A program made the translations under genes and the position numbers. From NCBI GenBank assembly GCA_965204865.1, contig OZ242027.1, positions 1,731,353 through 1,795,352 of the forward strand: DNA of 64,000 bases, given 5' to 3'. The notes under the pieces are model-generated. The model was not told the DNA's origin, searched no databases, and saw only the letters and a program-made list of their open reading frames with translations. This document shows positions 5,111-63,618 of this stretch, one piece after another. Positions within the stretch are counted from its first letter, which is position 1. Each line of letters starts with the position of its first letter. This stretch comes from Dehalococcoidia bacterium. Its GTDB lineage: Bacteria; Chloroflexota; Dehalococcoidia; Lucifugimonadales; UBA3495.

Positions 5111-5488
5111 TTAACATCGCCGTGTTGGCGATGCCGGGTAGTCCTCCGCCATTCCAGAATCACCGGGCTGGACCACGAAGTCGCGGCGGTCCCGGCATAA
5201 AGGGGCACGGTTCAGCACGTAGTCTCCTTCGTCGTTGTAGGGATCGATTTCGTTGTAGCCGGTCATCAGCCGGTACTTGTAATTCCCTATGAACAGGTGC
5301 TCGTTCTCCAAGCGGAAGAACCGGCATGGGACTCCCTCGCGCGCGCGAAACCTTTCGCATACGGCGGCCAACAGGTCCCGCTGATTGTCCCTATCCGTCA
5401 GGACGTACTCGTGGGGCCAAGTTTCCCGATAGGTTGCTGCCTCTCGCCAAGGGGCGCTAGCGATGATCTCCGTCAACGCTTGAGCCAT
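5111..5488 (-). CDS. Hypothetical protein (125 aa), upstream of and same strand as the PD-(D/E)XK gene
   Basis: Non-repetitive protein-like composition (WPHEYVLTDRDNQRDLL...FIGNYKYRLMTGYNEIDPY). No family recognised. Confidence 0.45.
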   Translation of the reverse strand: MAQALTEIIASAPWREAATYRETWPHEYVLTDRDNQRDLLAAVCERFRAREGVPCRFFRLENEHLFIGNYKYRLMTGYNEIDPYNDEGDYVLNRAPLCRDRRDFVVQPGDSGMAEDYPASPTRRC

Positions 5489-17230: not shown

Positions 17231-17539
17231 ATGACTGGGCGTTTACCGCCGTTCGCCATCCACCTCAAAAGTCTGCGGGAGAAATCGGGTAAAAGCCGGT
17301 ACGCAATCGCCAGATACGCAGAGTTGGACGAAGCCTATCTGCTCCGGCTGGAATCGGGGGCTCGCCGGAATCCGTCGAGGGATGCAGTGATAAAAATTGG
17401 CCTTGCACTGGTGTCGGGAACGACTAAGATCACGAGGCACGATATCGACCGGCTCCTGGTATCGGCCGGCTATCTCCCGCTAATGGGCAGGGGTGAGCCG
17501 CTTTTCGAGGTGGACCAAGGAGACTGGACCGATAGCTAA
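17231..17539 (+). CDS. XRE-family helix-turn-helix transcriptional regulator; 3' end runs into the IS3 left inverted repeat
   Basis: AAGGAG Shine-Dalgarno 7 nt upstream of the ATG. HTH region LKSLREKSGKSRYAIARYAELDEAYLLRLESGARRNPSRDAV. The last ~11 codons (EVDQGDWTDS*) are encoded by the IS3 IRL starting near 17506. Confidence 0.75.
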   Translation: MTGRLPPFAIHLKSLREKSGKSRYAIARYAELDEAYLLRLESGARRNPSRDAVIKIGLALVSGTTKITRHDIDRLLVSAGYLPLMGRGEPLFEVDQGDWTDS

Positions 17540-18867
17540 ACGGTAATCCTGCTCCAAACTAAAGACAGCAATTGCCGTTGTCGAGGCGGAGCGGGAAATG
17601 TCCAGAGAGCGGAGAAAGTACAGCCCGCCTCCAAGGCTAGAATTGCACTGGTGGCATTGAAGGGAGAGCAGACGATGCCCGCGCTAGCCGCCCGGTTAAG
17701 GTCTACCTCAACCAGATTCAGAGGTGTATGTAGGTTCTGGCCGATGCCGAGGCAGCCATCTTTGCCCACGTCAACGGGACCGATAAGGGCAACGAGTCGA
17801 GGAACAACGACACCTTGGTGGTCCTGTTGTACCAGCAGACCGGACAGCTGAAGGAGAAGCGGGATTTCTTTCAGGAGAGGGCGGCTCCGTGATTCCAGCA
17901 CGGCGGCGCGTGATGGTCGACTGGCGACATCGGCACCTATCCGTGGTGCGGCAGTGCGAGTTCATAGGCGTCGGCAGCCCCAGCCTCCACTACCGTGCCA
18001 AGGAGACCTCGCAACGGGACCTGTCCCTGATGCCGGAGGTGGACCGCCAGTACCTGGAAACCCTCTTCCAGGGTTCCGGGCGGGTGAGGGCCTCCCTGGA
18101 ACGGCAAGGCATGCCGGTAAGCCGTAAGCGGGTACAGCGGCTCATGAGACGGGGCTGCGGTCCATCTACCGGCAGCGCCGCGCCAGCCAACCGGCGCCGG
18201 AACGCCAAATGTACCCCTGCCTGCTGAGGAACTGACGATTGCCCGTACGAACCGGGTATGATCCGCTGACATCGCCTATCTGCCCATGGCCAGGGGATTT
18301 CTCTACTTGGTGGCCATCATGGACTGGTACGGCCGTTAGGTGGCGGCCTAGCGTTTGTCCAACACTCTGGTGGCCAGCTTTTGCATCGAGGCGTCGGGCG
18401 ATACCCTGAGCCAGGGAACGCCCGACCTTTTCGAAACCCGCCAGAGAAGCCGGTTCACCAGCCGCAAGTTCACGCAGATACTCCAGGATCACTAGGCGAG
18501 GATCAGCCCGGATGGCAGAGGCCAGTGCCAGGAAATCGTAGCCGTCGAGCGGCTATGCAGGACGGTGAAGAACGGGAAGTCTACCTAAAGGCCTTCGCCA
18601 ACGGCCTTGAGGCCCGCGAGAGTACTTCCGGTTCTACGACCACCGGAGGCCGCATCAGGCCCTGGGACTACCGGACGCCGCTCGTGTGCCTGCTGCACTG
18701 TACCTGGGACGTTAGTCGCCAGCCGCTGAAACCCATGCTTGGGACTTTCTATCAATGGCCGCCGGTAAGCCGAAAATGGTGGCCCTGAATGCCTGCATGA
18801 GGTACTGATGGTGATCCTGAACTCCACGCTTAAGCACGGTTCATCTTGGAACCACGGGGCCACCAAG
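17506..18867 (+). mobile_element. Decayed copy of the IS3-family element found intact at 57176-58591
   Basis: IRL-like CGAGGTGGACCAAGGAGACTGGACCGATAGCTAAACGGTAATCCTGCTCC aligns with the intact IRL TGAGGTGGACCCAAGAAACTGGACAGGTAGCTAAGTGGGAATCCTGCTCC. IRR-like TCTTGGAACCACGGGGCCACCAAG ends near 18867. The orfA/orfB homologous sequence is broken by many frameshifts, stops and deletions (e.g. MSRERRKYSPPPRLELHWWH..., fragments [57 protein letters not shown]). Confidence 0.8.
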
Positions 18868-27497: not shown

Positions 27498-27535
27498 AAT
27501 CGAACCCCTATCGAATTTGGAATGTTCCGTCCTTC

Positions 27536-27563
27536 GCCATTCCCGCGAAGGCGGGAGTCCAGG
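27536..27563 (+). repeat. REP-like hairpin repeat, family B copy
   Basis: CCATTCCCGCGAAGGCGGGAGTCCAGG: palindrome CCCGC-GAAG-GCGGG in the 73-bp spacer between two same-strand genes. Matches the copies at 45883 and 45951. Confidence 0.7.
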
Positions 27564-28751: not shown

Positions 28752-28765
28752 GTAATACGAGCTAT

Positions 28766-28803
28766 ATTCCCTCTCCCTCTGGGAGAGGGTTAGGGTGAGG
28801 GCG
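28766..28803 (-). repeat. REP-like hairpin repeat, family A copy (reverse orientation)
   Basis: ATTCCCTCTCCCTCTGGGAGAGGGTTAGGGTGAGGGCG, with hairpin CCCTCTCCC/GGGAGAGGG. Confidence 0.8.
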
Positions 28804-28826
28804 CACTCGCCCATTAAGGAGACGAT

Positions 28827-29504
28827 ATGGCACAGAAGAAAGGCACGGCCCTGCTAATGGTATACACCGACGTGGACATTGAGCACGATGCCGAGTTCAA
28901 CCGCTGGTACAACGAAGAGCATATCCCGGAGCGTCTGAGCGCTCCCGGTTTCTTGGACGGCGCCCGCTACGAAGCCCTGAAAGGCGGCCCGCGCTACCTG
29001 GCGGTCTACGAGTTGGAGTCGGCGGAGGCGTTGCAGTCCGAGGAATACCTGCGGATGAGCAACAACCCCACGCCGTGGACGCAACGGATGTCTCCCAACG
29101 TCGTCGGGCGCGGCATGGTGCGCAACGTCTACACGCAAATCTACCCCGAAGGCGGCGACGACCCGGATACACTGGGCCGGGGCATGGCTCCCGCGTTACA
29201 AATCGGACGCATGGACGTTCCTGTGGAGCTGGAGGCGAAGTACAACGAATACTATGACAGGATGCGGACGCCCGGGAATCTGCAAATTCCCGGCTGTCTC
29301 CATGTCCGCCGCTATCAGGCGGTGGAAGGTTGGCCCAAGTACCTGACTATGTACGAGTTCGAGCACGAAAAGGTGCCGGAAACCCTGGCATGGGAGAAGC
29401 AGCGCGGCCAGGACACGATGAATCAGTACATAGGCGGAACCTATGGACACGCCCCTGGCTCTCCGGGTGTCTACCGCCGCGTGTTCCCGCCCCGGGCGTT
29501 CTAG
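28827..29504 (+). CDS. Hypothetical protein, tandem dimeric alpha/beta-barrel (EthD-like) architecture suspected
   Basis: 225 aa with two similar halves (LLMVYTDVDIEHDAEFNRWYNEEHIPERL..YLAVYELES and LQIGRMDVPVELEAKYNEYYDRMRTP..YLTMYEFEH). Function not assignable. Confidence 0.55.
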   Translation: MAQKKGTALLMVYTDVDIEHDAEFNRWYNEEHIPERLSAPGFLDGARYEALKGGPRYLAVYELESAEALQSEEYLRMSNNPTPWTQRMSPNVVGRGMVRNVYTQIYPEGGDDPDTLGRGMAPALQIGRMDVPVELEAKYNEYYDRMRTPGNLQIPGCLHVRRYQAVEGWPKYLTMYEFEHEKVPETLAWEKQRGQDTMNQYIGGTYGHAPGSPGVYRRVFPPRAF

Positions 29505-29511
29505 CCTGGTT

Positions 29512-29550
29512 CGCCCTCACCCTAACCCTCTCCCGGAGGGAGAGGGAATT
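29512..29550 (+). repeat. REP-like hairpin repeat, family A copy
   Basis: CGCCCTCACCCTAACCCTCTCCCGGAGGGAGAGGGAATT, a near-identical inverse of the 28766-28803 copy. Confidence 0.8.
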
Positions 29551-33265: not shown

Positions 33266-33306
33266 TCACCCAGCCCTAACCCTCCCCTCGGGGGTAGGGG
33301 ATTTCC
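33266..33306 (+). repeat. REP-like hairpin repeat, family A variant
   Basis: TCACCCAGCCCTAACCCTCCCCTCGGGGGTAGGGGATTTCC in the spacer between the CoxL-like start and the SMP-30 stop. Confidence 0.7.
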
Positions 33307-35258: not shown

Positions 35259-36992
35259 ATGAGGCTTGTTATGGCTGATAACGTAGACGCCATCGAATCG
35301 GCCAGCGGCATCAACCCCAACAGCACCATCGGCGATGTCCTGGACCGGCAGGTGGAGCGCTTCGCCGAGAGGGACGCGCTGGTCAACGTGGAGACGGGCG
35401 AGCGGTACACCTACGCGGAGTTCCGCGATGAGGTGGAGCGCGTGGCACGCGGGCTGATGGCCCTGGGCATTCAGCGCGGCCATCACGTGGGCATCTGGGC
35501 CACCAATTACAGCCAGTGGGTGCTGACCCAGTTCGCCACCGCCAAGATTGGCGCGGTGATGGTCAATGTGAACCCGGCCTATCGAACCCACGAGCTGGCG
35601 TATGTGCTGGAGCAATCGGAGGCCAACGCCCTCATCTTGATTGGCAGGTTTCGCAACTCCAACTATGCGGCGATGGTCAATGAAGTTGTCCCAGAGTTGA
35701 AGGACTCGAATCCAGGAGAACTGCGCAGTTCCCAATTCCCTTATCTGCGAAACATCATCTGCATCCCGCCCCACGGCGATGGCACGGGAGCGGAGACGCC
35801 CCCCGGTATGTGGTCTTGGGATGAAATGGTGGCGAAGCACTCCGAGGTCTCGCCGGCGCAGTTGGCGGCGCGGCAGGCCGAATGCCGCCCGGATGATCCC
35901 ATAAACATTCAATACACCTCCGGCACCACCGGCAATCCCAAGGGTGCGATGCTGACCCATCATAACCTGGTGTCCAATGGCCTTTACGTGGGCGACGCCA
36001 TCGAGCTTACCGAGAACGACCGGCTGTGCGTCCCGGTGCCTTTCTATCACTGTTTCGGTTGCGTGATGGGAAACCTGGGCTGCATTACCCACGGCTCGGC
36101 AATCATCATCGCTTCGGAGCACTTCGACCCGCTGAAGACCCTGCAAGCGCTGGAGCAGGAACGATGTACCGCTCTCTATGGCGTGCCCACCATGTTCATA
36201 GCGCAACTCGGCCACGCCGACTTCGACAGATTCGACGTGTCATCTCTCCGCACTGGCATCATGGCTGGCTCGCCTTGCCCCATCGAGGTGATGCGGCAGG
36301 TCATAGACCGCATGGGCGCTCACCAGATGACCATTGCCTACGGGCAGACCGAGCATTCTCCGGTCATCACTCAGACCCTGGTGTCGGACTCCATCGAGCG
36401 CCGGGTGTCCACGGTAGGCGCCGTGCTGCCGGGAGTTGAGGCCCGCATCGTAGACCCGGAGAGCGGGGAGATATTGGGGCCTGGTGTGCAGGGAGAGCTA
36501 CAGGCGCGAAGCTCAATGGTGATGCGGGGTTACTACAACATGCCCGAGGCCACCGCAGCAGCCATCGACGGCGAGGGCTGGCTGCATACGGGGGACCTGG
36601 CCGAGGTAGACGAGGACGGCTACTACAAGATTACAGGACGCCTCAAGGACATGATCATCCGGGGGGGCGAGAACGTCTATCCGCGCGAAATCGAGGAATT
36701 CCTCTACACCCATCCCAAGGTTTCCGACGTGCAGGTCATAGGCGTTCCGGACGAGCGATTCGGCGAGGAAGTGATGGCCTGGGTGATGCTGAGGCCGGGA
36801 GAATCGGCCGACGCCGAGGAAATCCGGGAGTTCTGCCAGGGCAGGATCGCCCATTTCAAGGTGCCCCGCTACGTAAAGGTCACCGAGGAGTTCCCGATGA
36901 CAGTGACTGGCAAAATCCAGAAGTTCCGTATGCGGGAGATGGCAGTGGAAGAACTGGGGCTGCAAGCAGCCAGCAAGATCGAAACGGCATAA
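35259..36992 (+). CDS. AMP-dependent acyl-CoA synthetase/ligase
   Basis: [56 protein letters not shown]. Alternative ATG at 35271. Confidence 0.9.
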
Positions 36993-37075
36993 AGTATCAG
37001 GGATTTAACACCGAGAGCGCAGAGAAACCACAAAAATCTCTGCGCTCTCTGAGCGCTCTCGGCGTTTAATACCCC

Positions 37076-39274: not shown

Positions 39275-40195
39275 TCACCCTGTTCGCAGGATTCCTTTCA
39301 GACCCTCCGGCATAGCCCGGTCGGCTGCGCCGGTCCAGATGGCCAGCACGCCCAGCGTCAGCACGTAGGGCATCATATCCAGCAGGAAAGGCGACACCGG
39401 AGCGCCCAGGGCTTGCAGTTGCAGTTGCAGCCCGACGGCGCCGCCGAAGATGAACGCCCCAACCATACCGCGCAGGGGTGACCATAGCCCGAATATGACC
39501 AGGGCGACGGCAATAAACCCCCGCCCCGCGGTCATGCCCTCCGACCAGGTGTGAGTCAGGCCAACCGATAGCTGCGCCCCGCCCAGCCCGGCCAGCGCGC
39601 CGCCCAGGATGATGGCCGTCAGTTGCAGCGCTGCCGGGTTTCGCCCTGCGGCAAAGGCCACTGCCGCATTCTCGCCCACGGCCCGCAGGCTCAGCCCCCA
39701 GCGGGTGTATTGCAGCACGAACCAGATGAGAGGGCCGAGTCCGTAGGATACATAGGCCAGTATGTCCTGCCGGAACAGTGCTTCCCCTAATACCGGGATG
39801 TCCGCCAGGCCGGGAATGGCGACGGGGTTGAATCCGTCTATGATGCTGTCCACGTAGTCCCGGCCCACGTAGGCGGTGACCCCGCCAGCAAAGAGGGTGA
39901 GAGCCAGCCCCGTCGCCAACTGATTGGTGTCGCGGAATATGACCAGACCGGCTTGAATGGAGGCCAGCAGCCCTCCGGCGGCCATGCCTGCCAGCGCTCC
40001 CAGACCGGCCGAGCCGGTTTCAGCAGTGGTCAGGAAGCCGAAGCAGGCTCCCATTAGCAGGCAGCCCTCCATACCCAGGTTGATACGGCCCGCCCGCTCG
40101 GTAATCAACTCGCCATAGACCGCGTACAGCACTGATACACCGGGGCCTACTGCCCCGGTCAGCGTTCCGCTTACCACCAGCCAGAAGGTACTCAT
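39275..40195 (-). CDS. ABC transporter permease (BMP/nucleoside-sugar type)
   Basis: 306 aa, highly hydrophobic multi-TM protein. 4-nt overlap with the upstream permease. Confidence 0.85.
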   Translation of the reverse strand: MSTFWLVVSGTLTGAVGPGVSVLYAVYGELITERAGRINLGMEGCLLMGACFGFLTTAETGSAGLGALAGMAAGGLLASIQAGLVIFRDTNQLATGLALTLFAGGVTAYVGRDYVDSIIDGFNPVAIPGLADIPVLGEALFRQDILAYVSYGLGPLIWFVLQYTRWGLSLRAVGENAAVAFAAGRNPAALQLTAIILGGALAGLGGAQLSVGLTHTWSEGMTAGRGFIAVALVIFGLWSPLRGMVGAFIFGGAVGLQLQLQALGAPVSPFLLDMMPYVLTLGVLAIWTGAADRAMPEGLKGILRTG

Positions 40196-45950: not shown

Positions 45951-45979
45951 TCTGGATTCCCGCCTTCGCGGGAATGACG
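45951..45979 (-). repeat. REP-like hairpin repeat, family B copy (inverted relative to 45883)
   Basis: CTGGATTCCCGCCTTCGCGGGAATGAC, whose reverse complement is GTCATTCCCGCGAAGGCGGGAATCCAG. Confidence 0.75.
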
Positions 45980-49075: not shown

Positions 49076-49113
49076 CCCCCACCCTAACCCTCCCCCTCAG
49101 GGGGAGGGAAGGC
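49076..49113 (+). repeat. REP-like hairpin repeat, family A variant
   Basis: CCCCCACCCTAACCCTCCCCCTCAGGGGGAGGGAAGGC. Confidence 0.75.
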
Positions 49114-49720
49114 ATGGGGGAATTGGTTTGCGCTGGTTTGGCCTCGTTGACAGCCAGGCCATTTCGTCCACTGCTACGAAGTTCGGAAGGCCGGCCTGAG
49201 CTCCCAATCGGCCCAACGCTTCCAGCAAGTCCAGATAGCGGATGCCCTCCGGGCCTCGCTTCATGGCGGTGGGATAGGCCCCGGCGCGGCGCAGCATCTT
49301 CTCTGCATTGGTGTTCCAGACACAGAACAGGGTTGGGTTACGCAGGCAAAGGAGCCATGATATGAACTCCTTGCCCGCCCCGGGCAGCTTGTAAGCACCA
49401 TCGGGCGACACGCACTCGTCGAAGCGTCCTTCCAGCTTGATAGTATCATACAAAAGGAAGTCCAGGCTGTCTCTCACTTCCTCGATAGAAATGGCGGAGA
49501 AAACAGCGGATTCCCGCCCGCCGGAGGCGCGGTACAACCGCAGGGCTTGTTTCGGACTGAGGGCGATGAGGGCATCCTGCTCCAGCCAACCGGCGAATTC
49601 CTCCGCCCGGCTCCAGCGGCGCCTGCGATAGGAGTCAAGGGCCCCGGATTCCAACGCTTCGTCGTAAAGACGCCGGAGGGTCGTTGGGGTGAATTGTGAC
49701 GGCAAACCCTCGCCCTTCAT
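49097..49720 (-). CDS. Hypothetical protein (207 aa)
   Basis: Protein-like composition with no recognised family. Start overlaps the purD stop by 4 nt. The 3' end runs into the repeat at 49076-49113. Confidence 0.5.
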   Translation of the reverse strand: MKGEGLPSQFTPTTLRRLYDEALESGALDSYRRRRWSRAEEFAGWLEQDALIALSPKQALRLYRASGGRESAVFSAISIEEVRDSLDFLLYDTIKLEGRFDECVSPDGAYKLPGAGKEFISWLLCLRNPTLFCVWNTNAEKMLRRAGAYPTAMKRGPEGIRYLDLLEALGRLGAQAGLPNFVAVDEMAWLSTRPNQRKPIPPCLPSP

Positions 49721-50986: not shown

Positions 50987-51027
50987 GCGCCCTCACCCTA
51001 ACCCTATCCCAAGGGGGAGAGGGAATT
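50987..51027 (+). repeat. REP-like hairpin repeat, family A copy
   Basis: GCGCCCTCACCCTAACCCTATCCCAAGGGGGAGAGGGAATT in the 64-bp guaA-purD spacer. Confidence 0.8.
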
Positions 51028-52967: not shown

Positions 52968-54650
52968 ATGAACGCACAGCAGACCCTTTCGGCAATCGAA
53001 ACGCCGCTGCCCTGGGAGACCACCATCGGGCGGGTCCTGGACCGCATCACGGACACCAACCCGGACAAGACCTTCGTGGAGATTGGCGGGAAGTCATATT
53101 CCTACCGCGACGTCCGTGACGGCGTGCTGCGGACGGCATCGCTATTCCGTGAACTGGGCGTGGGCCACGGCGACCGGGTCTGCCTGTTCATGCCCAACTG
53201 CGTTGAATACCTGTACTGCTGGTTCGGGCTGTCGGAGTTGGGCGCCATCAGCGTTCCCATCAACACCGCCTACCGCCGCGACGAGACCGCCTACATCCTG
53301 AACAACGCCGAGGCCGTCGCTCTGGTCACCGACCCGTCGCTGGCCGACGTGGCCGGGGCCGCCGCCGACCTCGCCCGCAGTATCCGCCACCGCATACTGA
53401 GGGGGGACGCCCTCACCCCCGTATCAAGTACGGGGCAGGCTCTATCTCTCTCCCAGAGGGAGAGGAAACTAGCGGGATGGACGTCCTTCCAAGAGGGCTT
53501 CGAGAGCGCCGAGCCTCTCGCCGACCGCCCCGAAGTCTCGCCCGACGACGTTTCGATGCTGGTCTACACTTCCGGGACGACCGGGAATCCCAAGGGCGTG
53601 ATGGTCACGCACCGGATGTACGCAGCGGCAGGGCAGGGGTTCGCCCACTGGACCCAGGCCACCTCGGAAGACCGCTTCTTCACCTGCCTGCCCTTCTACC
53701 ACGCCAACATCCAGTACTACTCGACCATGGGCGCGCTGGCCGCCGGAGCCACGCTGGTCATCGTTGACCGTTTCAGCGCGTCGCGGTTCTGGGGACAGGT
53801 GCGTGAGGCTCGCGCTACCGTGGTCAACTTCATCGGCATGATGATGCCGGTGCTGGCCAAGAACCCGGAATCCCCGGATGACGCTGACAATACCGTCCGC
53901 CTGTTCTACGGCTCGCCGTCCTTTTCACCAGAGTTCCTAAGCGAGTTCCAGGAACGCTTCGCTACCGACATCATCGTGGGCTTCGGCATGACCGAGACCT
54001 GCTACGGCACCATCGAGGCCATCCGAGAGGAGCGCCGCTCCGGTTCCTCGGGCCGCCCCCGCCAGCACGCGGACCCGCGCTTCGAGAACACCGTCCGCAT
54101 CGCCGACGCCGAGACCGGCCAGCACGTCGGCCCCAACACTGTGGGCGAAATTACCATCAAGAACCCGGCCGTAATGCCCGGCTACTGGCGCAACGACGAG
54201 CAGAACCGCGAGACCCTCCGCGACGGCTGGCTCTACACCGGCGACCTCGGCTGGCTGGACGAAGACGGCTTCCTGTACTTCGTTGACCGCAAGAAGGACA
54301 TAATCCGCCGCCGGGGGGAAAACATCTCCTCCCAGGAAGTGGAGAACGTCATCAAGGCCAACCCCGACGTCCTGGACTGCGCCGTTGTTGCCGTACCGTC
54401 CGAGCTGGGCGAAGACGAGGTGAAGGCCTACGTAACTCCGCGCCCCGGCGCCACAGTCAACCCCGAGGAAATCGTATACTGGTGCGCCGAGAACCTGGCC
54501 TACTTCAAGGTTCCCCGCTACTGGGAAGTGCGCGACGAGCTGCCCCGCACTCCCAGCCTGCGCGTCCGCAAGGACGTGCTGCGCCAGGAACGCGAAGACC
54601 TTATCGAGGGCTGCTACGACCGCGAAGCCGCCGGAATCCGCCTGCGATAA
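52968..54650 (+). CDS. AMP-dependent acyl-CoA synthetase/ligase carrying an in-frame REP-like insertion
   Basis: [46 protein letters not shown]. Residues ALTPVSSTGQALSLSQRERKL are encoded by a family A repeat (53408-53470). Confidence 0.88.
   Translation: MNAQQTLSAIETPLPWETTIGRVLDRITDTNPDKTFVEIGGKSYSYRDVRDGVLRTASLFRELGVGHGDRVCLFMPNCVEYLYCWFGLSELGAISVPINTAYRRDETAYILNNAEAVALVTDPSLADVAGAAADLARSIRHRILRGDALTPVSSTGQALSLSQRERKLAGWTSFQEGFESAEPLADRPEVSPDDVSMLVYTSGTTGNPKGVMVTHRMYAAAGQGFAHWTQATSEDRFFTCLPFYHANIQYYSTMGALAAGATLVIVDRFSASRFWGQVREARATVVNFIGMMMPVLAKNPESPDDADNTVRLFYGSPSFSPEFLSEFQERFATDIIVGFGMTETCYGTIEAIREERRSGSSGRPRQHADPRFENTVRIADAETGQHVGPNTVGEITIKNPAVMPGYWRNDEQNRETLRDGWLYTGDLGWLDEDGFLYFVDRKKDIIRRRGENISSQEVENVIKANPDVLDCAVVAVPSELGEDEVKAYVTPRPGATVNPEEIVYWCAENLAYFKVPRYWEVRDELPRTPSLRVRKDVLRQEREDLIEGCYDREAAGIRLR
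53408..53470 (+). repeat. REP-like repeat, family A long form (two hairpins), intragenic and in frame
   Basis: CGCCCTCACCCCCGTATCAAGTACGGGGCAGGCTCTATCTCTCTCCCAGAGGGAGAGGAAACT is colinear with the reverse complement of the intergenic long copy at 54700-54758 (CCTCACCCCC-hairpin-GGCTCTA-hairpin-AA). About 63 bp. Confidence 0.75.
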
Positions 54651-54699
54651 CCTTCACTCTTTTTAGCCAACAGGGTTAAGGTGACGGCACACGGCCCCC

Positions 54700-54758
54700 A
54701 ATTCCCTTCCTTCCAGGGAGAGGGTTAGAGCCTGCCTCTGCGAAGGCAGGGGGTGAGG
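54700..54758 (-). repeat. REP-like repeat, family A long form (two hairpins)
   Basis: AATTCCCTTCCTTCCAGGGAGAGGGTTAGAGCCTGCCTCTGCGAAGGCAGGGGGTGAGG. Confidence 0.75.
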
Positions 54759-54763
54759 TGAAA

Positions 54764-55243
54764 ATGTCGGAATCGAGATACTGGCTATTCAAGTCTGAAC
54801 CGTCGGCCTACTCCTTCAATGACCTGCTCAATGAAGAGAACAGGACCGCGGAGTGGGACGGCGTTCGCAACTACCAGGCCCGCAACTTCATGCGCGACGA
54901 TATGAAGGTGGGCGACAAAGTGCTGTTCTACCACAGCAGCGCCAAACCCACCGCGGTGGTGGGCACCGCCCGCATCGCCAAGGAAGCCTACCCTGACGCC
55001 ACCGCCTGGGACCCCAACGACAAGCACTACGACCCCAAGAGCAGTCCTGGCGAGACGGTCTGGATGGTGGTCGAAATTCAGGCCGAGGCGCCCTTGCCCA
55101 ATCCCGTGACGCTGGCGGATGTAAAGGCCAACCCCAGGCTGAAAGATATGCTGCTGATTCGGAAGGGCCAGCGCCTCTCCATCCAGCCCGTCACCAAAGA
55201 GGAATACGACGAAATCGTGGCGATGGGCAACAGCGCGGGATAA
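54764..55243 (+). CDS. EVE (PUA-like) domain protein
   Basis: YWLFKSEPSAYSFNDL...WDGVRNYQARNFMRDDMKVGDKVLFYHS. ATG 54764 preferred over GTG 54758. Confidence 0.85.
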   Translation: MSESRYWLFKSEPSAYSFNDLLNEENRTAEWDGVRNYQARNFMRDDMKVGDKVLFYHSSAKPTAVVGTARIAKEAYPDATAWDPNDKHYDPKSSPGETVWMVVEIQAEAPLPNPVTLADVKANPRLKDMLLIRKGQRLSIQPVTKEEYDEIVAMGNSAG

Positions 55244-57175: not shown

Positions 57176-57265
57176 TGAGGTGGACCCAAGAAACTGGACA
57201 GGTAGCTAAGTGGGAATCCTGCTCCTAGACTGAGGGCAGCGACAGCTGTCGAGGAGGAGCGGGAA

Positions 57266-57574
57266 ATGTCCAGAGAGCGAAGAAAGCACAGCCCGGCCTT
57301 CAAGGCCAAAGTTGCGCTGGAGGCAATGAAGGGCGAGCAGACGGTGGCCGAGCTGGCCGCCCGGTTCGAGGTTCACCCCAACCAGATTCAGACATGGAAG
57401 AAGGCGCTGGTCGACGGCGCGGCCGTCATCTTTGACCAGGGCAACGGGACCAATGCCAATAAGGACAGGGGTCAGAAGAGCAAGAACAACGACGCCCTGG
57501 TGGCCCGGCTGTACCAGCAGATCGGCCAGCTGAAGGTGGAGCGGGATTTCTTGGAGGAAAGGTCCGGTCCATGA
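57266..57574 (+). CDS. IS3-family transposase OrfA (HTH)
   Basis: [43 protein letters not shown]-terminal leucine-zipper-like [16 protein letters not shown]. Confidence 0.88.
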
Positions 57575-58563
57575 CTCCGGCACGGCGGCGTGAGTTGGTG
57601 GACCGGCGATATGGGCGCCTGTCCGTGGTGCGGCAGTGCCGGTTGCTGGGCGTCAGCCGCTCCAGCTTCTACTATCGTGCCAAGGGGACCTCACCACAGG
57701 ATCTGTCCCTGATGCGGGAGATCGACCGCCAGTACCTGGAGACGCCGTTCTACGGTTCCAGGCGGATGAAAGCCTGTCTGGAGAGGCAGGGCCAGCCGGC
57801 CAGCAGAAAGCGGGTGCAGCGGCTGATGCGGGTCATGGGGCTGCGAGCCATCTACCGGCGTCCCAGCACCAGCCGGCCGGCGCCGGAGCAACGGGTCTAT
57901 CCCTACCTGCTGCGGGAGGCCAGGATCACCCAGCCCAACCAGGTGTGGGCGGCGGAGCAACGGGTCTATCCCTACCTGCTGCGGGAGGCCAGGATCACCC
58001 AGCCCAACCAGGTGTGGGCGGCGGACATCACCTACCTGCCCATGGCCCGGGGGTTCCTGTACCTGGTGGCGGTGATGGACTGGCACAGCCGCTACGTGCT
58101 GGCCTGGCGATTGTCCAACACCCTGGAGGCGGGCTTCTGTGCCGAGGCGCTGACTGAGGCGTTGGGCTGTGGCAGGCCCGAGGTGTTCAACACGGACCAG
58201 GGAAGCCAGTTCACCAGCCGGGAGTTCACGCAGATACTGCAGGATCACTCGGTGAAGATCAGCATGGACGGCCGGGGCAGGTATCAGGACAACATCTTCG
58301 TGGAGCGGCTATGGCGGACGGTGAAGTACGAGGAGGTGTACCTGAAGGCCTACGCCAACGCCACTGAGGCGCGCCGGGGACTGGGAGAATATTTCCGGTT
58401 CTATAACAACCGCAGGCCGCACCAGGCATTGGGCTACCGGACACCGGCCGAGGTCTTCTACGGAGAGCCTGAAATAGAGGAGTTGAAAGAGAGGAGGTGT
58501 TTGGACCGACCGGTATTGGTACCATACGAAGGAGCGCAGGAGTCCCACTTAATTGCGGCCTAA
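57571..58563 (+). CDS. IS3-family transposase OrfB (rve/DDE integrase core) with 23-aa internal tandem duplication
   Basis: In the -1 frame relative to orfA, with an ATGA overlap. [10 protein letters not shown]...[63 protein letters not shown] occurs twice in tandem. Confidence 0.85.
57886..58023 (+). repeat. Perfect 69-bp x2 tandem duplication inside IS3 orfB
   Basis: 57886-57954 and 57955-58023 are identical base for base (GAGCAACGGGTCTATCCCTACCTGCTGCGGGAGGCCAGGATCACCCAGCCCAACCAGGTGTGGGCGGCG). Confidence 0.9.
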
Positions 58564-58594
58564 TCCTGTCCAACCAATGGGGTCCACCTCAACC

Positions 58595-60722
58595 AGCACC
58601 TGCTCCTACACTCGCGCCGACGCCCGCGCCAACCCCGACAACCGTCCCAACCCCAACGCCTGCACCAACTGCAATGCCCACAGTAGCGCATGCCCCTACG
58701 CCCACGGTTTCCCCTACTTTGACTCCAACATCAACGCCGATCCCGACCACGACCCCGACTCCCACGCCAGCCCCAACACCCACACCCCTACCCACCCCAA
58801 CGGCTGCACCCACACTGATCCTCAAACCTACTGCTACCCCAACTCCAATACCGGAACTGAAAGAACGAATCTATCAAGGAGCCAATCTATCCGGTTGGGA
58901 AGTGGTAGTTGGGGATGGTCTTTACGTTCAAGAAGGTGAACGCCCTGTAGATATACAAGACTTGGAGACCGTGCACTTTGATGATTACAGCGAGCTGCGA
59001 GCCAATATCAAGGGAAGAGGTATTATGGCTCACAATATAACTGTCAAAAGATTCAGAGATCCTGACGCCTTCAAGTTCAATCATAGATTGAAGTACGAAT
59101 TTCGGCTTCCTTACGAACCTGTCAAAGGCGACAGCGAGTTTAATCCGCAGACGATAGAAGGGTCCCTTCAAATTTGGGACGGGGCAAATAGGAGGATAGA
59201 TTACGTTACCGGTTTTCAGTGGGACCTGAACCCATGGGACCCTGACTATGGCTCTATTGATATGTGGTTTGGCAGTATAAAGAGATGGCAAAAGGTTGGG
59301 TTTTTGAAGCCGGATACTTTGTGGCATACATTTGAAGGCTATATTGATTTCGAGAATAACAGAACTTGGATCAGCATTGATGGTGTGAAGTACGAATCTG
59401 AACTATACGAAACGAGCAGAGCAGGTTTGCGTTGGGGACGGGATGTTTCGGCTAGAACAAATGCTGAGATGATAAGCCTCTGGCCCGGGAAAACAAGTGG
59501 GGGCGCTAAACACAGGGCTCAATTCAGAAACTGGGTTTGGATCTGGGAGCCTATTCCCGGAGCCACCGCTGTTTACCACCCTGCGCCAACTGCTACGCCT
59601 GTCGGTATCGATGCAACTGCCATCACCAAGGAGAAGGCGGACAGGATAAAGTCCCGGATAGGCCTGACGGCCGAAAAGACCGTAATAGCCGCCTACATGG
59701 GTTGGTACGGGCTTTCGCTGGGGACTGAATGGAAGCACTGGGAGTGGAAGGGCGAAAACCCTCACGATCCAAGAAAATTCGTCAGCGAAGGCCGGCGCGA
59801 TATAGCTGCGGTGAACTACCCGATGATTGGACCGTACCGGTCGACCGACCCGAGACTGCTGCGGTACCACATCAGGCTTGCCAGGGCGGCAGGCATCGAC
59901 TGCATGTCGGTTTACTGGACTACGTACCGGTATCTGCCTGGTATCGATCTGAAGTACCAAGACCGAAACTTCTCGCTGATGATGGATGTGGCGGATGAGG
60001 AAGATTATTGCCTGACGGTGAGAATGCAGCCCAAGATTCACTTCAATGGATGGGTGAAGCACCCTTCCAGGGAGGAAGCCTTAAGCGCCGTCGAAGACGA
60101 TTTCAGATATGCGTTGCACCAATACAGCAAGCGCAAGAGTTTTATGAAGCACCAGGGCTTGCCCGTGTTGTTTGTTTACGGAACATCCAGGCTCACCCCG
60201 GAGGAATGGGCCAAGTTGGTCTCAAACCTTGAACGGGAAGGCCACTACTTCATCATGGTCAGCGACAGTCCCGATCCCGCCTATTTCGGGCCATTTAGCA
60301 GTTTCTACAAATGGCCGTGCTGGTCGTGTGTCAAGAGAGATGGCGATGCCTACTTCTCAGACGTGCTGCGCAGGATGAAAAAGCACAGCGTCGGGCGGGA
60401 CGACGTGGTTCTAGCTGCAGGCGTTTGGCCCGGTTTCGACGACACCGGAGTCTGGGGTTGGGGAGACGGTCCGAGGGTCTGGGATAGGCGAGGGGGCGAG
60501 TCTTACAAGGTTACATGGGAAGCCGCGCTCGCTCACGATGCGCGATGGATCAAGATCGTAACGTTCAACGACTGGAATGAAGGAACGGAGATTGAGCCCA
60601 GCATCGAACACGGCTTTGGTTACATTGAACAAACGGCAGAGTGGATAGGCAAGTTCAAAGGCGTTGCAATAGACTGGTCGCCAGCGATACAGCTCACGAA
60701 CAATTTCATTTCGGGTAAATGA
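58595..60722 (+). pseudogene. 3' part of the IS3-interrupted lipoprotein gene: PT-rich linker, unknown beta-rich domain, GH99-like (WbsX/endo-mannosidase-like) domain
   Basis: PAPAPTLAPTPAPTPTT... linker, then C-terminal AAYMGWYG...WKHWEW, NYPMIGPYRSTDP, AGIDCMSVYW, WPGFDDTG, IVTFNDWNEGTEIEPS (compare GH99 NEWHEGTQIE). Confidence 0.75.
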
Positions 60723-63519: not shown

Positions 63520-63618
63520 CCCGGGGTCTGTTAAACGCCGAGTGCGCCGAGACCGCCAAGAAATCTTGGCTCTGTCCGAAAATCTCCGCGGTCTCCGCGT
63601 ACTCGACGTTAAGTCTCA

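Follow-up and report, generated by a model that had tools for sequence, protein, structure and literature searches.

The closest described counterpart of the element treated here is the BoxC/PIT repeat of Escherichia coli, which Holder et al. (2015; PMC4666352) defined as the triplex motif TM_ECO, i.e. 5'-CCCTCNCCC N3-6 GGGNGAGGG N3 GGGNGAGGG with three 9-nt blocks, and which, according to the account given there, also features in Hoyne et al. (2000). The motif was counted in proteobacterial genomes, and its single strand folds in vitro into a stable intrastrand triplex, which was not detected in vivo; its E. coli copies show no promoter or terminator activity, all 23 copies of strain MG1655 are intergenic, and they mark unusually strain-variable loci, for which slippage or error-prone repair at the structure was proposed (PMC4666352). 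The same 16+7 E. coli sequences (HPG1/HPG2), intergenic only, were described as a switch between G-quadruplex, hairpin and duplex (Kaplan et al. 2016; PMC5100583). Here we analyse a 64,000-nt stretch of a Dehalococcoidia bacterium (Chloroflexota; assembly GCA_965204865.1, contig OZ242027.1), hereafter the window, in which a composite element derived from this motif is translated in frame within an acyl-CoA ligase gene.

Repeats inside genes have been described before. Rickettsia palindromic elements (RPEs; Ogata et al. 2000, 2002) lie in frame in protein-coding genes, as far as they are presented in PMC10969869 and PMC3733652, and Di Nocera et al. (2013; PMC3733652) found GTAG/CGTC REPs inside known genes and proposed that they are neutral in flexible linkers or loops. 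In-gene palindromic repeats and BoxC/TM_ECO in E. coli are both known, and the link between them is unmade in the open-access literature searched. The function and spread of the BoxC/triplex motif have been open questions since the 1990s.

A translated repeat in an acyl-CoA ligase gene

The host gene (52968..54650, + strand) encodes an intact 560-aa acyl-CoA ligase of the ANL superfamily, as judged from Pfam, structure match and codon-position divergence. Its product matches AMP-binding (1.6e-80; 271 bits) and AMP-binding_C (56 bits) and carries both the P-loop YTSGTTGxPKG and the conserved C-terminal lysine, with Y200-K209 and K535 among the invariant columns of the alignment. Among solved structures, FadD13, oxalate-CoA ligase and feruloyl-CoA synthetase are the nearest relatives, and a Foldseek search of the PDB with the AlphaFold2 model returned ANL enzymes with probability 1.0. 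Orthologues share the gene order purD-guaA-ligase-EVE-nitroreductase. Compared with relatives, the insert-bearing lineages diverge by 3.5-6% at codon positions 1+2 and by 20-33% at position 3, and the ligase in these lineages is under purifying selection.

Codons 148-168 of this gene form a 63-nt segment (53409..53471, + strand) that encodes ALTPVSSTGQALSLSQRERKL and is absent from most orthologues. An earlier note on this DNA had described an in-frame insertion of about 63 nt at 53408-53470, which holds for length and frame in the 560-aa open reading frame (ORF), while the coordinates were one base early. Its placement about 50 residues upstream of the P-loop was correct, i.e. Y200 lies 52 residues after the start and 32 after the end of the segment, and the two-hairpin architecture it had reported was reproduced by RNA folding. 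Hairpin 1, CCCCGTA-TCAAG-TACGGGG (53417-53435), folds as RNA with -12.0 kcal/mol (z -4.8; 0/200 shuffles equally stable), hairpin 2, CTCTCCC-AGA-GGGAGAG (53448-53464), with -12.4 kcal/mol (z -1.9), and the entire segment with -27.7 kcal/mol (z -3.1). DNA alignment with orthologues delimits a repeat-derived core at 53409..53465 (+); the last two codons of the segment, AAA CTA, probably descend from the native loop codons GAA CCG, and the 560-aa ligase shows a net gain of 17 codons over the 543-aa form.

The segment is best described as a probable composite of two short structure-prone dispersed repeats, which would have landed in a permissive loop of the N-terminal domain. One would be a 33-nt BoxC/PIT/TM_ECO core, consisting of a C-block, TAA, a second C-block, a loop and a G-block, and the other a 24-nt hairpin module nested between the first two blocks of that core. 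The outer C-block CCCTCACCC (53410..53418, +) is the complement of GGGTGAGGG, the second G-rich stem in the published motif (PMC4666352), and this 9-mer recurs exactly in the canonical window copies at 29514, 50990 and 28793 (minus strand). The nested module CCCGTATCAAGTACGGGGCAGGCT (53418..53441, +; translated PVSSTGQA) holds hairpin 1, lies between ACC and CTA of the one-hairpin core, represents a clean 24-nt indel relative to the sister gene of locus L082, and is identical at 24/24 positions in locus L088. Hairpin 2, CTCTCTCCC-AGA-GGGAGAGG (53446..53465, +), corresponds to the inner C-block and the G-block of the triplex motif, both slightly decayed (ACC to TCT; GGG to GGA). The 11-mer GGCAGGCTCTA (53434-53444) also recurs exactly in other family copies. 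Moreover, CTCTCTCCCAGAGGGAGAGG with up to three mismatches has three matches in the window versus 0.03 expected, and an nhmmer profile of window copies recovers 53443-53470 with E=6.6e-4; by these sequence comparisons, the in-gene segment is confirmed as a member of a dispersed repeat family beyond chance.

Insertion into a length-variable loop

Orthologues were sampled as the 120 closest clusters (81-100% identity) from Dehalococcoidia metagenome-assembled genomes and metagenomes; WIN denotes the window's gene and L001 etc. denote related loci. A short loop, LRGD-EPAGD-GW, in proteins of 542-543 aa (a few differ in length elsewhere) was found in 80/120 clusters. The forward core, e.g. ALTLTLSQRERE, which is the exact +1 translation of the forward repeat core, was present in 17/120 (one of them decayed), SPSPSTGEGRGGGE in 10/120, APLLNSPPEGGNER in 5/120, a remnant in a single cluster and an unrelated expansion of 5-6 residues in the other seven. 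At the DNA level, the empty site reads CTG CGC GGC GAC GAA CCG GCG GGC GAC GGC TGG, whereas the 552-aa form reads GAC|GCC CTC ACC CTA ACC CTC TCC CAG AGG GAG AGG|GAA CTN GCN GGN TGG, and the 560-aa form (WIN, L088 and L081) carries an extra 24 nt exactly between ACC and CTA. The motif in opposite orientation appears as the SPSPS form, which is type-B-like with loop CCG and, read on the coding strand, fits with no more than one mismatch in any block. Derivatives are also found, i.e. the inner C-block is deleted in L087, the G-block is duplicated in L086, and L022 has kept only a remnant that shares ACTAGCGGG.

These data identify the segment as a lineage-specific insertion, as the earlier note had proposed, since the short loop without such a segment prevails among the closest clusters and more distant orthologues from family-poor genomes also lack it; a homologous segment in orthologues from repeat-free genomes, which would have made it ancestral protein sequence, was not encountered. 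The repeat family itself is common in the closest genomes and rare below about 80% identity. The paralogue at 35259-36992, formerly adduced as evidence of the insertion, is uninformative: it is only 30% identical, and the loop that it has here, though similar in length, is unrelated. In more distant orthologues, the loop varies from 5 to about 40 residues, and in several of them it holds other palindromes, such as TCCCCCCTTCGCAAGGGGGGA (translated PPFARGE) in L072, of which L058 and L065 have close variants, or the long hairpin of another kind in L070. A second insertion site was observed in the same ligase between the W..F helix and the P-loop, with PPHLKEGIQGEE in L019 and ISPTSLYQRGVSESLFHKRGVRQKA in L076, of which the latter looks repeat-derived.

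The AlphaFold2 model, built on a shallow alignment of 51 sequences (mean pLDDT 71.9, pTM 0.73), predicts a strand at 141-144, coil at 145-162, a short helix at 163-168 and a helix at 174-180, with pLDDT below 50 at 150-154 and 156-158 of the insert and block means of 78-92 on its flanks. In this model, the insertion occupies a loop of the N-terminal domain that precedes the P-loop and is framed by confidently predicted elements. The 'surface-loop insertion' of the earlier note fits insofar as the segment is mostly low-confidence coil between a strand and helices, while exposure at the surface is no more direct than a prediction from the model.

We consider it probable, taken together, that the segment is a tolerated, structure-prone and unstable repeat in a permissive ligase loop, that its turnover stems from local instability of the motif, and that the peptide is dispensable for the enzyme. 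The insert would survive because the core has no stop codon in its present orientation and frame (three of six frames are open), because the net length change is a multiple of three, and because the low-complexity peptide sits in a loop that is already length-variable across the family. Since the enzyme stays functional, the insertion would be tolerated rather than used, and the inserted peptide would be neutral. The central proposal of the earlier note, an intergenic-type repeat inserted and tolerated in a loop in a lineage-specific manner, agrees with both the orthologue comparison and the loop model. The site itself would be dynamic, with locally unstable motifs being deleted, duplicated or replaced, and slippage or repair at hairpin or triplex DNA would be the likely cause; such local instability would account for close relatives being empty or carrying the forward core, the core plus nested module, the reverse core, a third variant or a decayed copy.

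Assignment to the BoxC/TM_ECO family

The family was identified by a full-text literature search with the G-rich strand of the one-hairpin consensus, GCCCTCACCC-TAA-CCCTCTCCC-NNN-GGGAGAGGG-AAT. A regex scan for TM_ECO gave exact fits in the window at 28769-28801 (+) and 29514-29546 (-). Among the in-gene copies of orthologues, those of L084 and L086 fitted exactly and those of L011, L082, L089, L007 and L085 with at most one mismatch per block. Window positions 28769-28802 differ from TM_ECO no. 17 of MG1655 only in the first loop and in the optional base after the motif. In addition, a blastn search with 53 nt of the window (28760-28812) had matches in 4400/5426 complete E. coli genomes, with about 93% identity (mostly 90-95% over about 39 nt) and no annotated feature under the matches listed. 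Because the same sequence family occurs in E. coli and in the window, the 'REP-like family A' of the earlier note corresponds to the triplex/G-quadruplex motif, here with a nested hairpin module, and it is no REP in the RAYT sense, as there is no GTAG/CGTC tag.

The window's own gene copy (53409-53465) was returned by neither TM_ECO regex, i.e. exact or with at most one mismatch per block, because the nested module lengthens the second loop to 27 nt, where the pattern has 3, and because two blocks are mismatched (TCCTCTCCC and GGGAGAGAG). Its sister L082 fits within one mismatch per block and the more distant L084 and L086 fit exactly, and on this comparison the window's gene copy is a derived TM_ECO member by descent. 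The G-rich strand of canonical copies reads G3N3G3N3G3N3G3; triplex or G-quadruplex formation by the window copies would be a prediction, the hairpins being the structures that were computed.

Other classes of repeats fit less well. A GTAG/CGTC REP in the RAYT sense was rejected, as the tag is absent from the consensus GCCCTCACCCTAACCCTCTCCC-NNN-GGGAGAGGGAAT and the GACG beside some copies is inconstant. Likewise, a MITE was rejected, since no terminal inverted repeats are seen and alignments of filled and empty sisters show neither a target-site duplication nor a constant junction. Transposase domains in the ten ORFs scanned, in this 64-kb part of a 4.31-Mb contig, were of IS3 type only, and no part of the window reached the gathering threshold of an Rfam family. 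A link to TIRYT elements, whose ends read GGGGWSAS, fits at only 7/8 positions and serves as a lead only. The open-access literature yielded nothing specific on SAR202/Chloroflexi repeats.

Turnover among close relatives

The relationship of the loop states was estimated from a neighbour-joining tree of this single gene (536 codons, loop removed, 100 bootstraps). The tree is star-like at depth, and well-supported tip pairs differ in loop state. Loci L084 and L085, both from the same metagenome, carry forward and reverse elements at a divergence of 5.2% (bootstrap 100); L011 is forward and L016 empty (7.3%, bootstrap 100), L086 is forward with the duplicated G-block and L014 empty (7.3%, bootstrap 100), and L013 is reverse and L015 empty (9.1%, bootstrap 92). 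Furthermore, L087 is decayed and L006 empty (bootstrap 89), and WIN has two hairpins versus one in L082 (8.9%, bootstrap 99). With six supported sister pairs as well as derivatives by deletion and duplication, the locus is hypervariable in the same way as TM loci of E. coli. As the outlying L088 shares the module of WIN, the last pair is most simply read as a clean loss of the 24 nt in the sister L082, or as its conversion.

Two routes to this diversity were rejected. Spread of filled alleles by recombination is not supported, with a divergence ratio of 1.00 between the ±150-nt flanks and the rest of the gene, in forward-forward as well as forward-empty comparisons; in the pair L084/L085 alone, the flanks are somewhat more diverged (0.081 versus 0.045), and short conversion tracts remain compatible with the data. 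An in-situ inversion as the origin of the reverse type was also discarded, as the reverse complement of L084 differs from L085 at about nine block or loop positions.

Beyond the ligase itself, motif copies in L001-L089 pile up in the 3' spacers of the ligase, EVE and nitroreductase genes, with as many as three in succession, and most are oriented so that the mRNA of the upstream gene would carry the G-rich strand. Between genomes that are still about 89% identical in the flanking genes, these spacers can no longer be aligned.

Nucleotide-level patterns in the insert

The insert may evolve more like a structured nucleic acid than like a protein segment. Although third positions of the gene diverge by 28% between WIN and L088, the nested module is identical between them, whereas WIN and L088 differ from L081 at 9 positions of the module. 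The three codons that follow the core (GAA CTN GCN) vary synonymously like ordinary coding sequence. Hairpin 1 has 7/7 stem pairs in WIN versus 5/7 in L081, and among ten two-hairpin copies aligned with MAFFT and folded with RNAalifold, 4/7 predicted hairpin-1 pairs show double changes; hairpin 1 only was recovered because loop indels misalign hairpin 2. Modules related to the nested one (CCTTCGRCARGCTCAGG; CCGCCTTCGCGGGGGCAGGCTC) occur in many contexts, such as tandem arrays or the inside of the hairpin loop of another copy, as in L082, and the element is accordingly a mosaic of small units. The distant Dehalococcoidia genome L052 also has a 24-25-nt module, CCCTTCGACAGGCTCAGGACAGGCC, of the type nested in the gene copy of L081, as short tandem arrays at 2480-2520 and 5286-5348. 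Overall, the patterns, with modest statistics, suggest constraint or bias at the level of the nucleic acid and not on the peptide.

Weighing of the alternatives

Several observations weigh against a merely tolerated, locally unstable repeat. The 12-18 nt beside the element also differ between filled and empty sisters, i.e. the junctions are unclean, and permissiveness of the loop by itself would not lead one to expect that insertions of either orientation fall within the same five codons. The tree represents a single gene in which only tip pairs are well supported, and surface exposure of the loop was read from a model of mean pLDDT 72 without coordinates. Third positions of the 33-nt core differ in only 10/165 pairwise comparisons (6%) versus 20-36% in the gene, a deficit that is clear for the core, weak when the three flanking codons are included and, with non-independent pairs, suggestive only; WIN and L088 differ at 1/22 (P=0.008). 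Finally, three double changes preserve pairing in hairpin 1 between WIN/L088 and L081 (T-A to C-G, C·T to T-A and G-C to A-T). The conservation of the core and the paired changes could reflect selection on structure, 'self-correction' of quasi-palindromes or recent arrival.

The alternative that survives best concerns only the recurrence of insertions, namely that mobile repeats prefer this DNA site and selection keeps the in-frame products. We hold such a targeted hot spot to be possible but not probable. Its basis could be the native loop GCG GGC GA(G/C) GGC TGG, which resembles the motif G-block GGGNGAGGG: the empty site of L001, GGGCGAGGG, is a perfect G-block and other empty alleles match 8/9, but the resemblance may be incidental, since a G-block-like string arises wherever a G-E-G or G-D-G tripeptide is encoded. 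The same five-codon loop is occupied by three or more kinds of element (forward, reverse and the third variant) and by the other palindromes of distant orthologues, and well-supported sisters differ in state without imported flanks; however, a very permissive loop together with many insertion attempts could give the same picture. There is a precedent in the different REPs found at about the same recB site of two Xanthomonas species (PMC3733652), whereas no transposase or integrase is linked to the motif in the literature, and neither a target-site duplication nor a constant junction is visible in the alignments of filled and empty alleles.

It is less likely that the hairpins or the triplex/G-quadruplex potential are kept by selection within the coding sequence, e.g. 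for ribosome pausing between subdomains, mRNA stability or local DNA shape. Such a role would explain third positions conserved well beyond the synonymous rate of the gene, the unchanged nested module in WIN and L088, the compensatory changes leading to a complete stem in WIN and the double changes across the ten family copies. On the other hand, most orthologues work without the insert, alleles carry it in either orientation and would produce quite different RNAs, decayed copies persist in L087 and L022, and the E. coli copies have neither promoter or terminator activity nor a stable triplex in vivo (PMC4666352). Conservation could also result from recent arrival, gene conversion with other copies or correction of quasi-palindromes. 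The suggestion of the earlier note that the repeat imposes structure on the mRNA is compatible with the folds and the hairpin-preserving substitutions, the effect itself being a prediction.

Exaptation of the 21 residues for a protein-level role, such as interaction, localization or a regulatory loop, is very unlikely. Although the insert was retained over about 11-12% gene divergence (WIN, L088 and L081) while the adjoining intergenic copies turned over, close relatives have unrelated peptides at the site (ALTLTLSQRERE, SPSPSTGEGRGGGE or APLLNSPPEGGNER) or none, the variation tracks DNA structure and not residue chemistry, and the model has pLDDT below 50 at 150-158 with only a short helix predicted at 163-168. 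Of the phrase 'tolerated or exapted' in the earlier note, the first half is therefore retained and the second is not. That the segment is no insertion at all, i.e. an ancestral protein stretch resembling the repeat or an assembly artefact, is scarcely credible, with no supporting point found: the short loop is common to the outgroups and the majority of orthologues, the canonical repeat is present base for base in orthologues (L084, nhmmer E=5e-12), and the two-hairpin form recurs in two further assemblies, L088 (sample ERZ23495130) and L081 (TARA metagenome), so that the segment is not an artefact of one assembly. A tolerated repeat with local motif instability, which we infer to be structure-induced, is the reading that we continue to prefer.

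Further copies and other repeats in the window

An intergenic two-hairpin copy of the same composite element lies 40 nt past the ligase stop (54690..54764, - strand) and forms an inverted pair with the in-gene copy (71% complementary); these two alone have the two-hairpin build in the window, and the remaining four or five copies have one hairpin. The exact fits named above belong to canonical intergenic copies at 28766..28806 (+; type A with loop TTA) and 29509..29549 (-). These two, inverted, 41 nt long and 95% complementary, bracket a single 225-aa gene (DUF4286/ABM-like, 28827-29504). Copies fitting with at most one mismatch per block were found by regex and profile scan at 49076..49110 (-; fit at 49076-49108) and, between purD and guaA, at 50987..51026 (-; fit at 50990-51023), and a weak partial copy, the hairpin half only, at 33274..33304 (+; E=2.7e-3). 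All other family matches are intergenic, both in the window and across some 690 kb of related loci. A 207-aa ORF downstream of purD (49097-49720, -), without Pfam match, ends inside the copy at 49076-49110; its stop TGA is located in the hairpin loop of the copy, and if the ORF is real, the repeat would supply its last codons.

The window also harbours other repeats. An IS3-type insertion sequence is present in two copies (17500-18700 and 57180-58560) that are 73-94% identical piecewise; the second has ORFs with HTH_Tnp_1 and rve integrase domains and a 69-bp tandem duplication in the transposase ORF (57879-57947 / 57948-58016, 99% identical). A second palindromic family, GGGATTTAACACCGAGAGCGCAGAGAAACC..., occurs at 37000-37073 and 63524-63567, and the spacer after the ligase stop of L088 (4684-4810), where the window has the triplex motif, holds a GCAGAGAA/CTCTGCGC-rich repeat that resembles this family by eye (unaligned). 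A third short hairpin repeat, CATTCCCGCGAAGGCGGGAGTCCAG, is found at 27531-27563, 45952-45979 and 39793-39825, two copies being 93% complementary to each other. In addition, GGTGGGTCAATTCCAAGTGGGCGG has three close copies (2315-2421, spacing 40-43 nt) and an inverted copy about 2.1 kb away (181-209), which could be binding sites or iterons, and ORF 58497-60722 (741 aa, GH99-like domain) starts with a Pro/Thr-rich low-complexity region (58594-58822) made of 18-24-nt quasi-repeats.

In-frame copies in other proteins

In-frame copies are not unique to the ligase, since the same element was also found in frame in other conserved proteins, several of them unrelated housekeeping proteins, from unrelated metagenomes. 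The canonical core is open in three of six frames, i.e. +1 (ALTLTLSxRER), +3 (PHPNPLPxGEG) and -3 ((P)LSLxERVRVR). A metagenome scan with the exact 34-nt pattern retrieved at least 120 contigs with a GC content of 39-70%, an arbitrary and non-random sample; among the matches listed, the element lay inside a long ORF in 15/120 loci, always in one of the three open frames, and 9/10 element-bearing ORFs tested were conserved proteins by Pfam. The element is located inside the MoeA_N match of a MoeA protein, between the MG2 and bait-region domains of an α2-macroglobulin, in the interdomain linker of CoaBC, at residues 254-265 of a class I/II aminotransferase matched in two stretches, after the first of these (38-207), after AIRS_C in PurL (the contig ends before any later domain), after the U32 domain of a U32 peptidase, and before the PHP domain of a DnaE-type polymerase, there possibly upstream of the true start; the contigs with the motif in frame in these proteins are L126, L146, L176, L152, L107, L206 and L134. 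The α2-macroglobulin translation has two copies of PHPNPLPKGEGT, and several of these proteins have further repeat-like peptides nearby (SPLPLGEGPGVRA and similar).

Implications

A BoxC/TM_ECO element is abundant, nearly base for base, in a Dehalococcoidia lineage and is translatable there. At a gene divergence of 5-9%, a single permissive loop has many times gained such elements, exchanged them and let them decay, and its matched filled and empty alleles provide a concrete system for how such elements move and why their loci are unstable. The element is a recurring source of low-complexity loop insertions, and for annotation, peptides such as ALTLTLSQRER or PHPNPLPEGEG inside proteins should be taken as a warning that the sequence is repeat-derived.

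More speculatively, and as a possible but not probable reading, BoxC/triplex repeats would integrate repeatedly, with a preference for site and in either orientation, at a codon-level hot spot and would serve across phyla as a source of in-frame loop insertions in conserved proteins (ALTLTLSxRER, PHPNPLPxGEG and PLSLWERVRVR), with hairpins maintained in the coding sequence. If true, the mechanism of insertion could be read from the ligase loop, whose filled, empty, inverted, nested and decayed alleles would form a natural series.

Comparison with known systems

The likeness to BoxC/TM_ECO of E. coli is one of sequence, and the other copies in the window are likewise multi-copy, dispersed and intergenic. 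As with TM_ECO, loci vary strongly between close relatives through deleted or mutated motifs, and no mobility gene is known. In contrast to the 23/23 intergenic copies of MG1655, the present copy is translated in frame and is not strictly intergenic. It also differs from published TM_ECO in its host, a member of the Dehalococcoidia (Chloroflexota), and in having a 24-nt nested hairpin and two block mismatches.

With RPEs it shares the behaviour of a dispersed palindrome that lies in frame in still-functional genes, encodes a repeat-derived peptide and is also found in intergenic regions. This likeness is not one of membership: RPEs, as far as the sources describe them, are about 100-150 bp long, Rickettsia-specific and not presented as triplex or G-quadruplex motifs, whereas the core found here measures 33-37 nt (57 nt with the module) and occurs across phyla, so that RPEs are set apart by description of size and host. 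Intragenic REPs are similar in placing a short stem-loop in genes, and their shared recB site in Xanthomonas parallels the recurrent use of one loop; the present element has, however, neither a GTAG/CGTC tag nor a known RAYT partner, and shows a three-block architecture rather than a simple palindrome.

The nested modules are comparable to another class of repeats. Cyanobacteria reportedly harbour very small nested mobile repeats (SDRs), an account ascribed to Elhai and colleagues in 2008, whose work is cited in PMC3116915. Here, too, modules of about 24 nt occur inside other repeats, much as in these SDRs and in the mosaic BIMEs of E. coli, and the module of the ligase gene is a clean indel relative to the sister allele; the comparison is by description, and the mobility of the modules would follow from their varied contexts only. 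Against this background of known in-gene palindromic repeats and intergenic BoxC/TM_ECO copies, what is new is that the element lies in frame in a gene, that its host belongs to the Dehalococcoidia, that it contains a nested module, that one loop is used recurrently in two orientations, and that other conserved proteins have in-frame copies as well.

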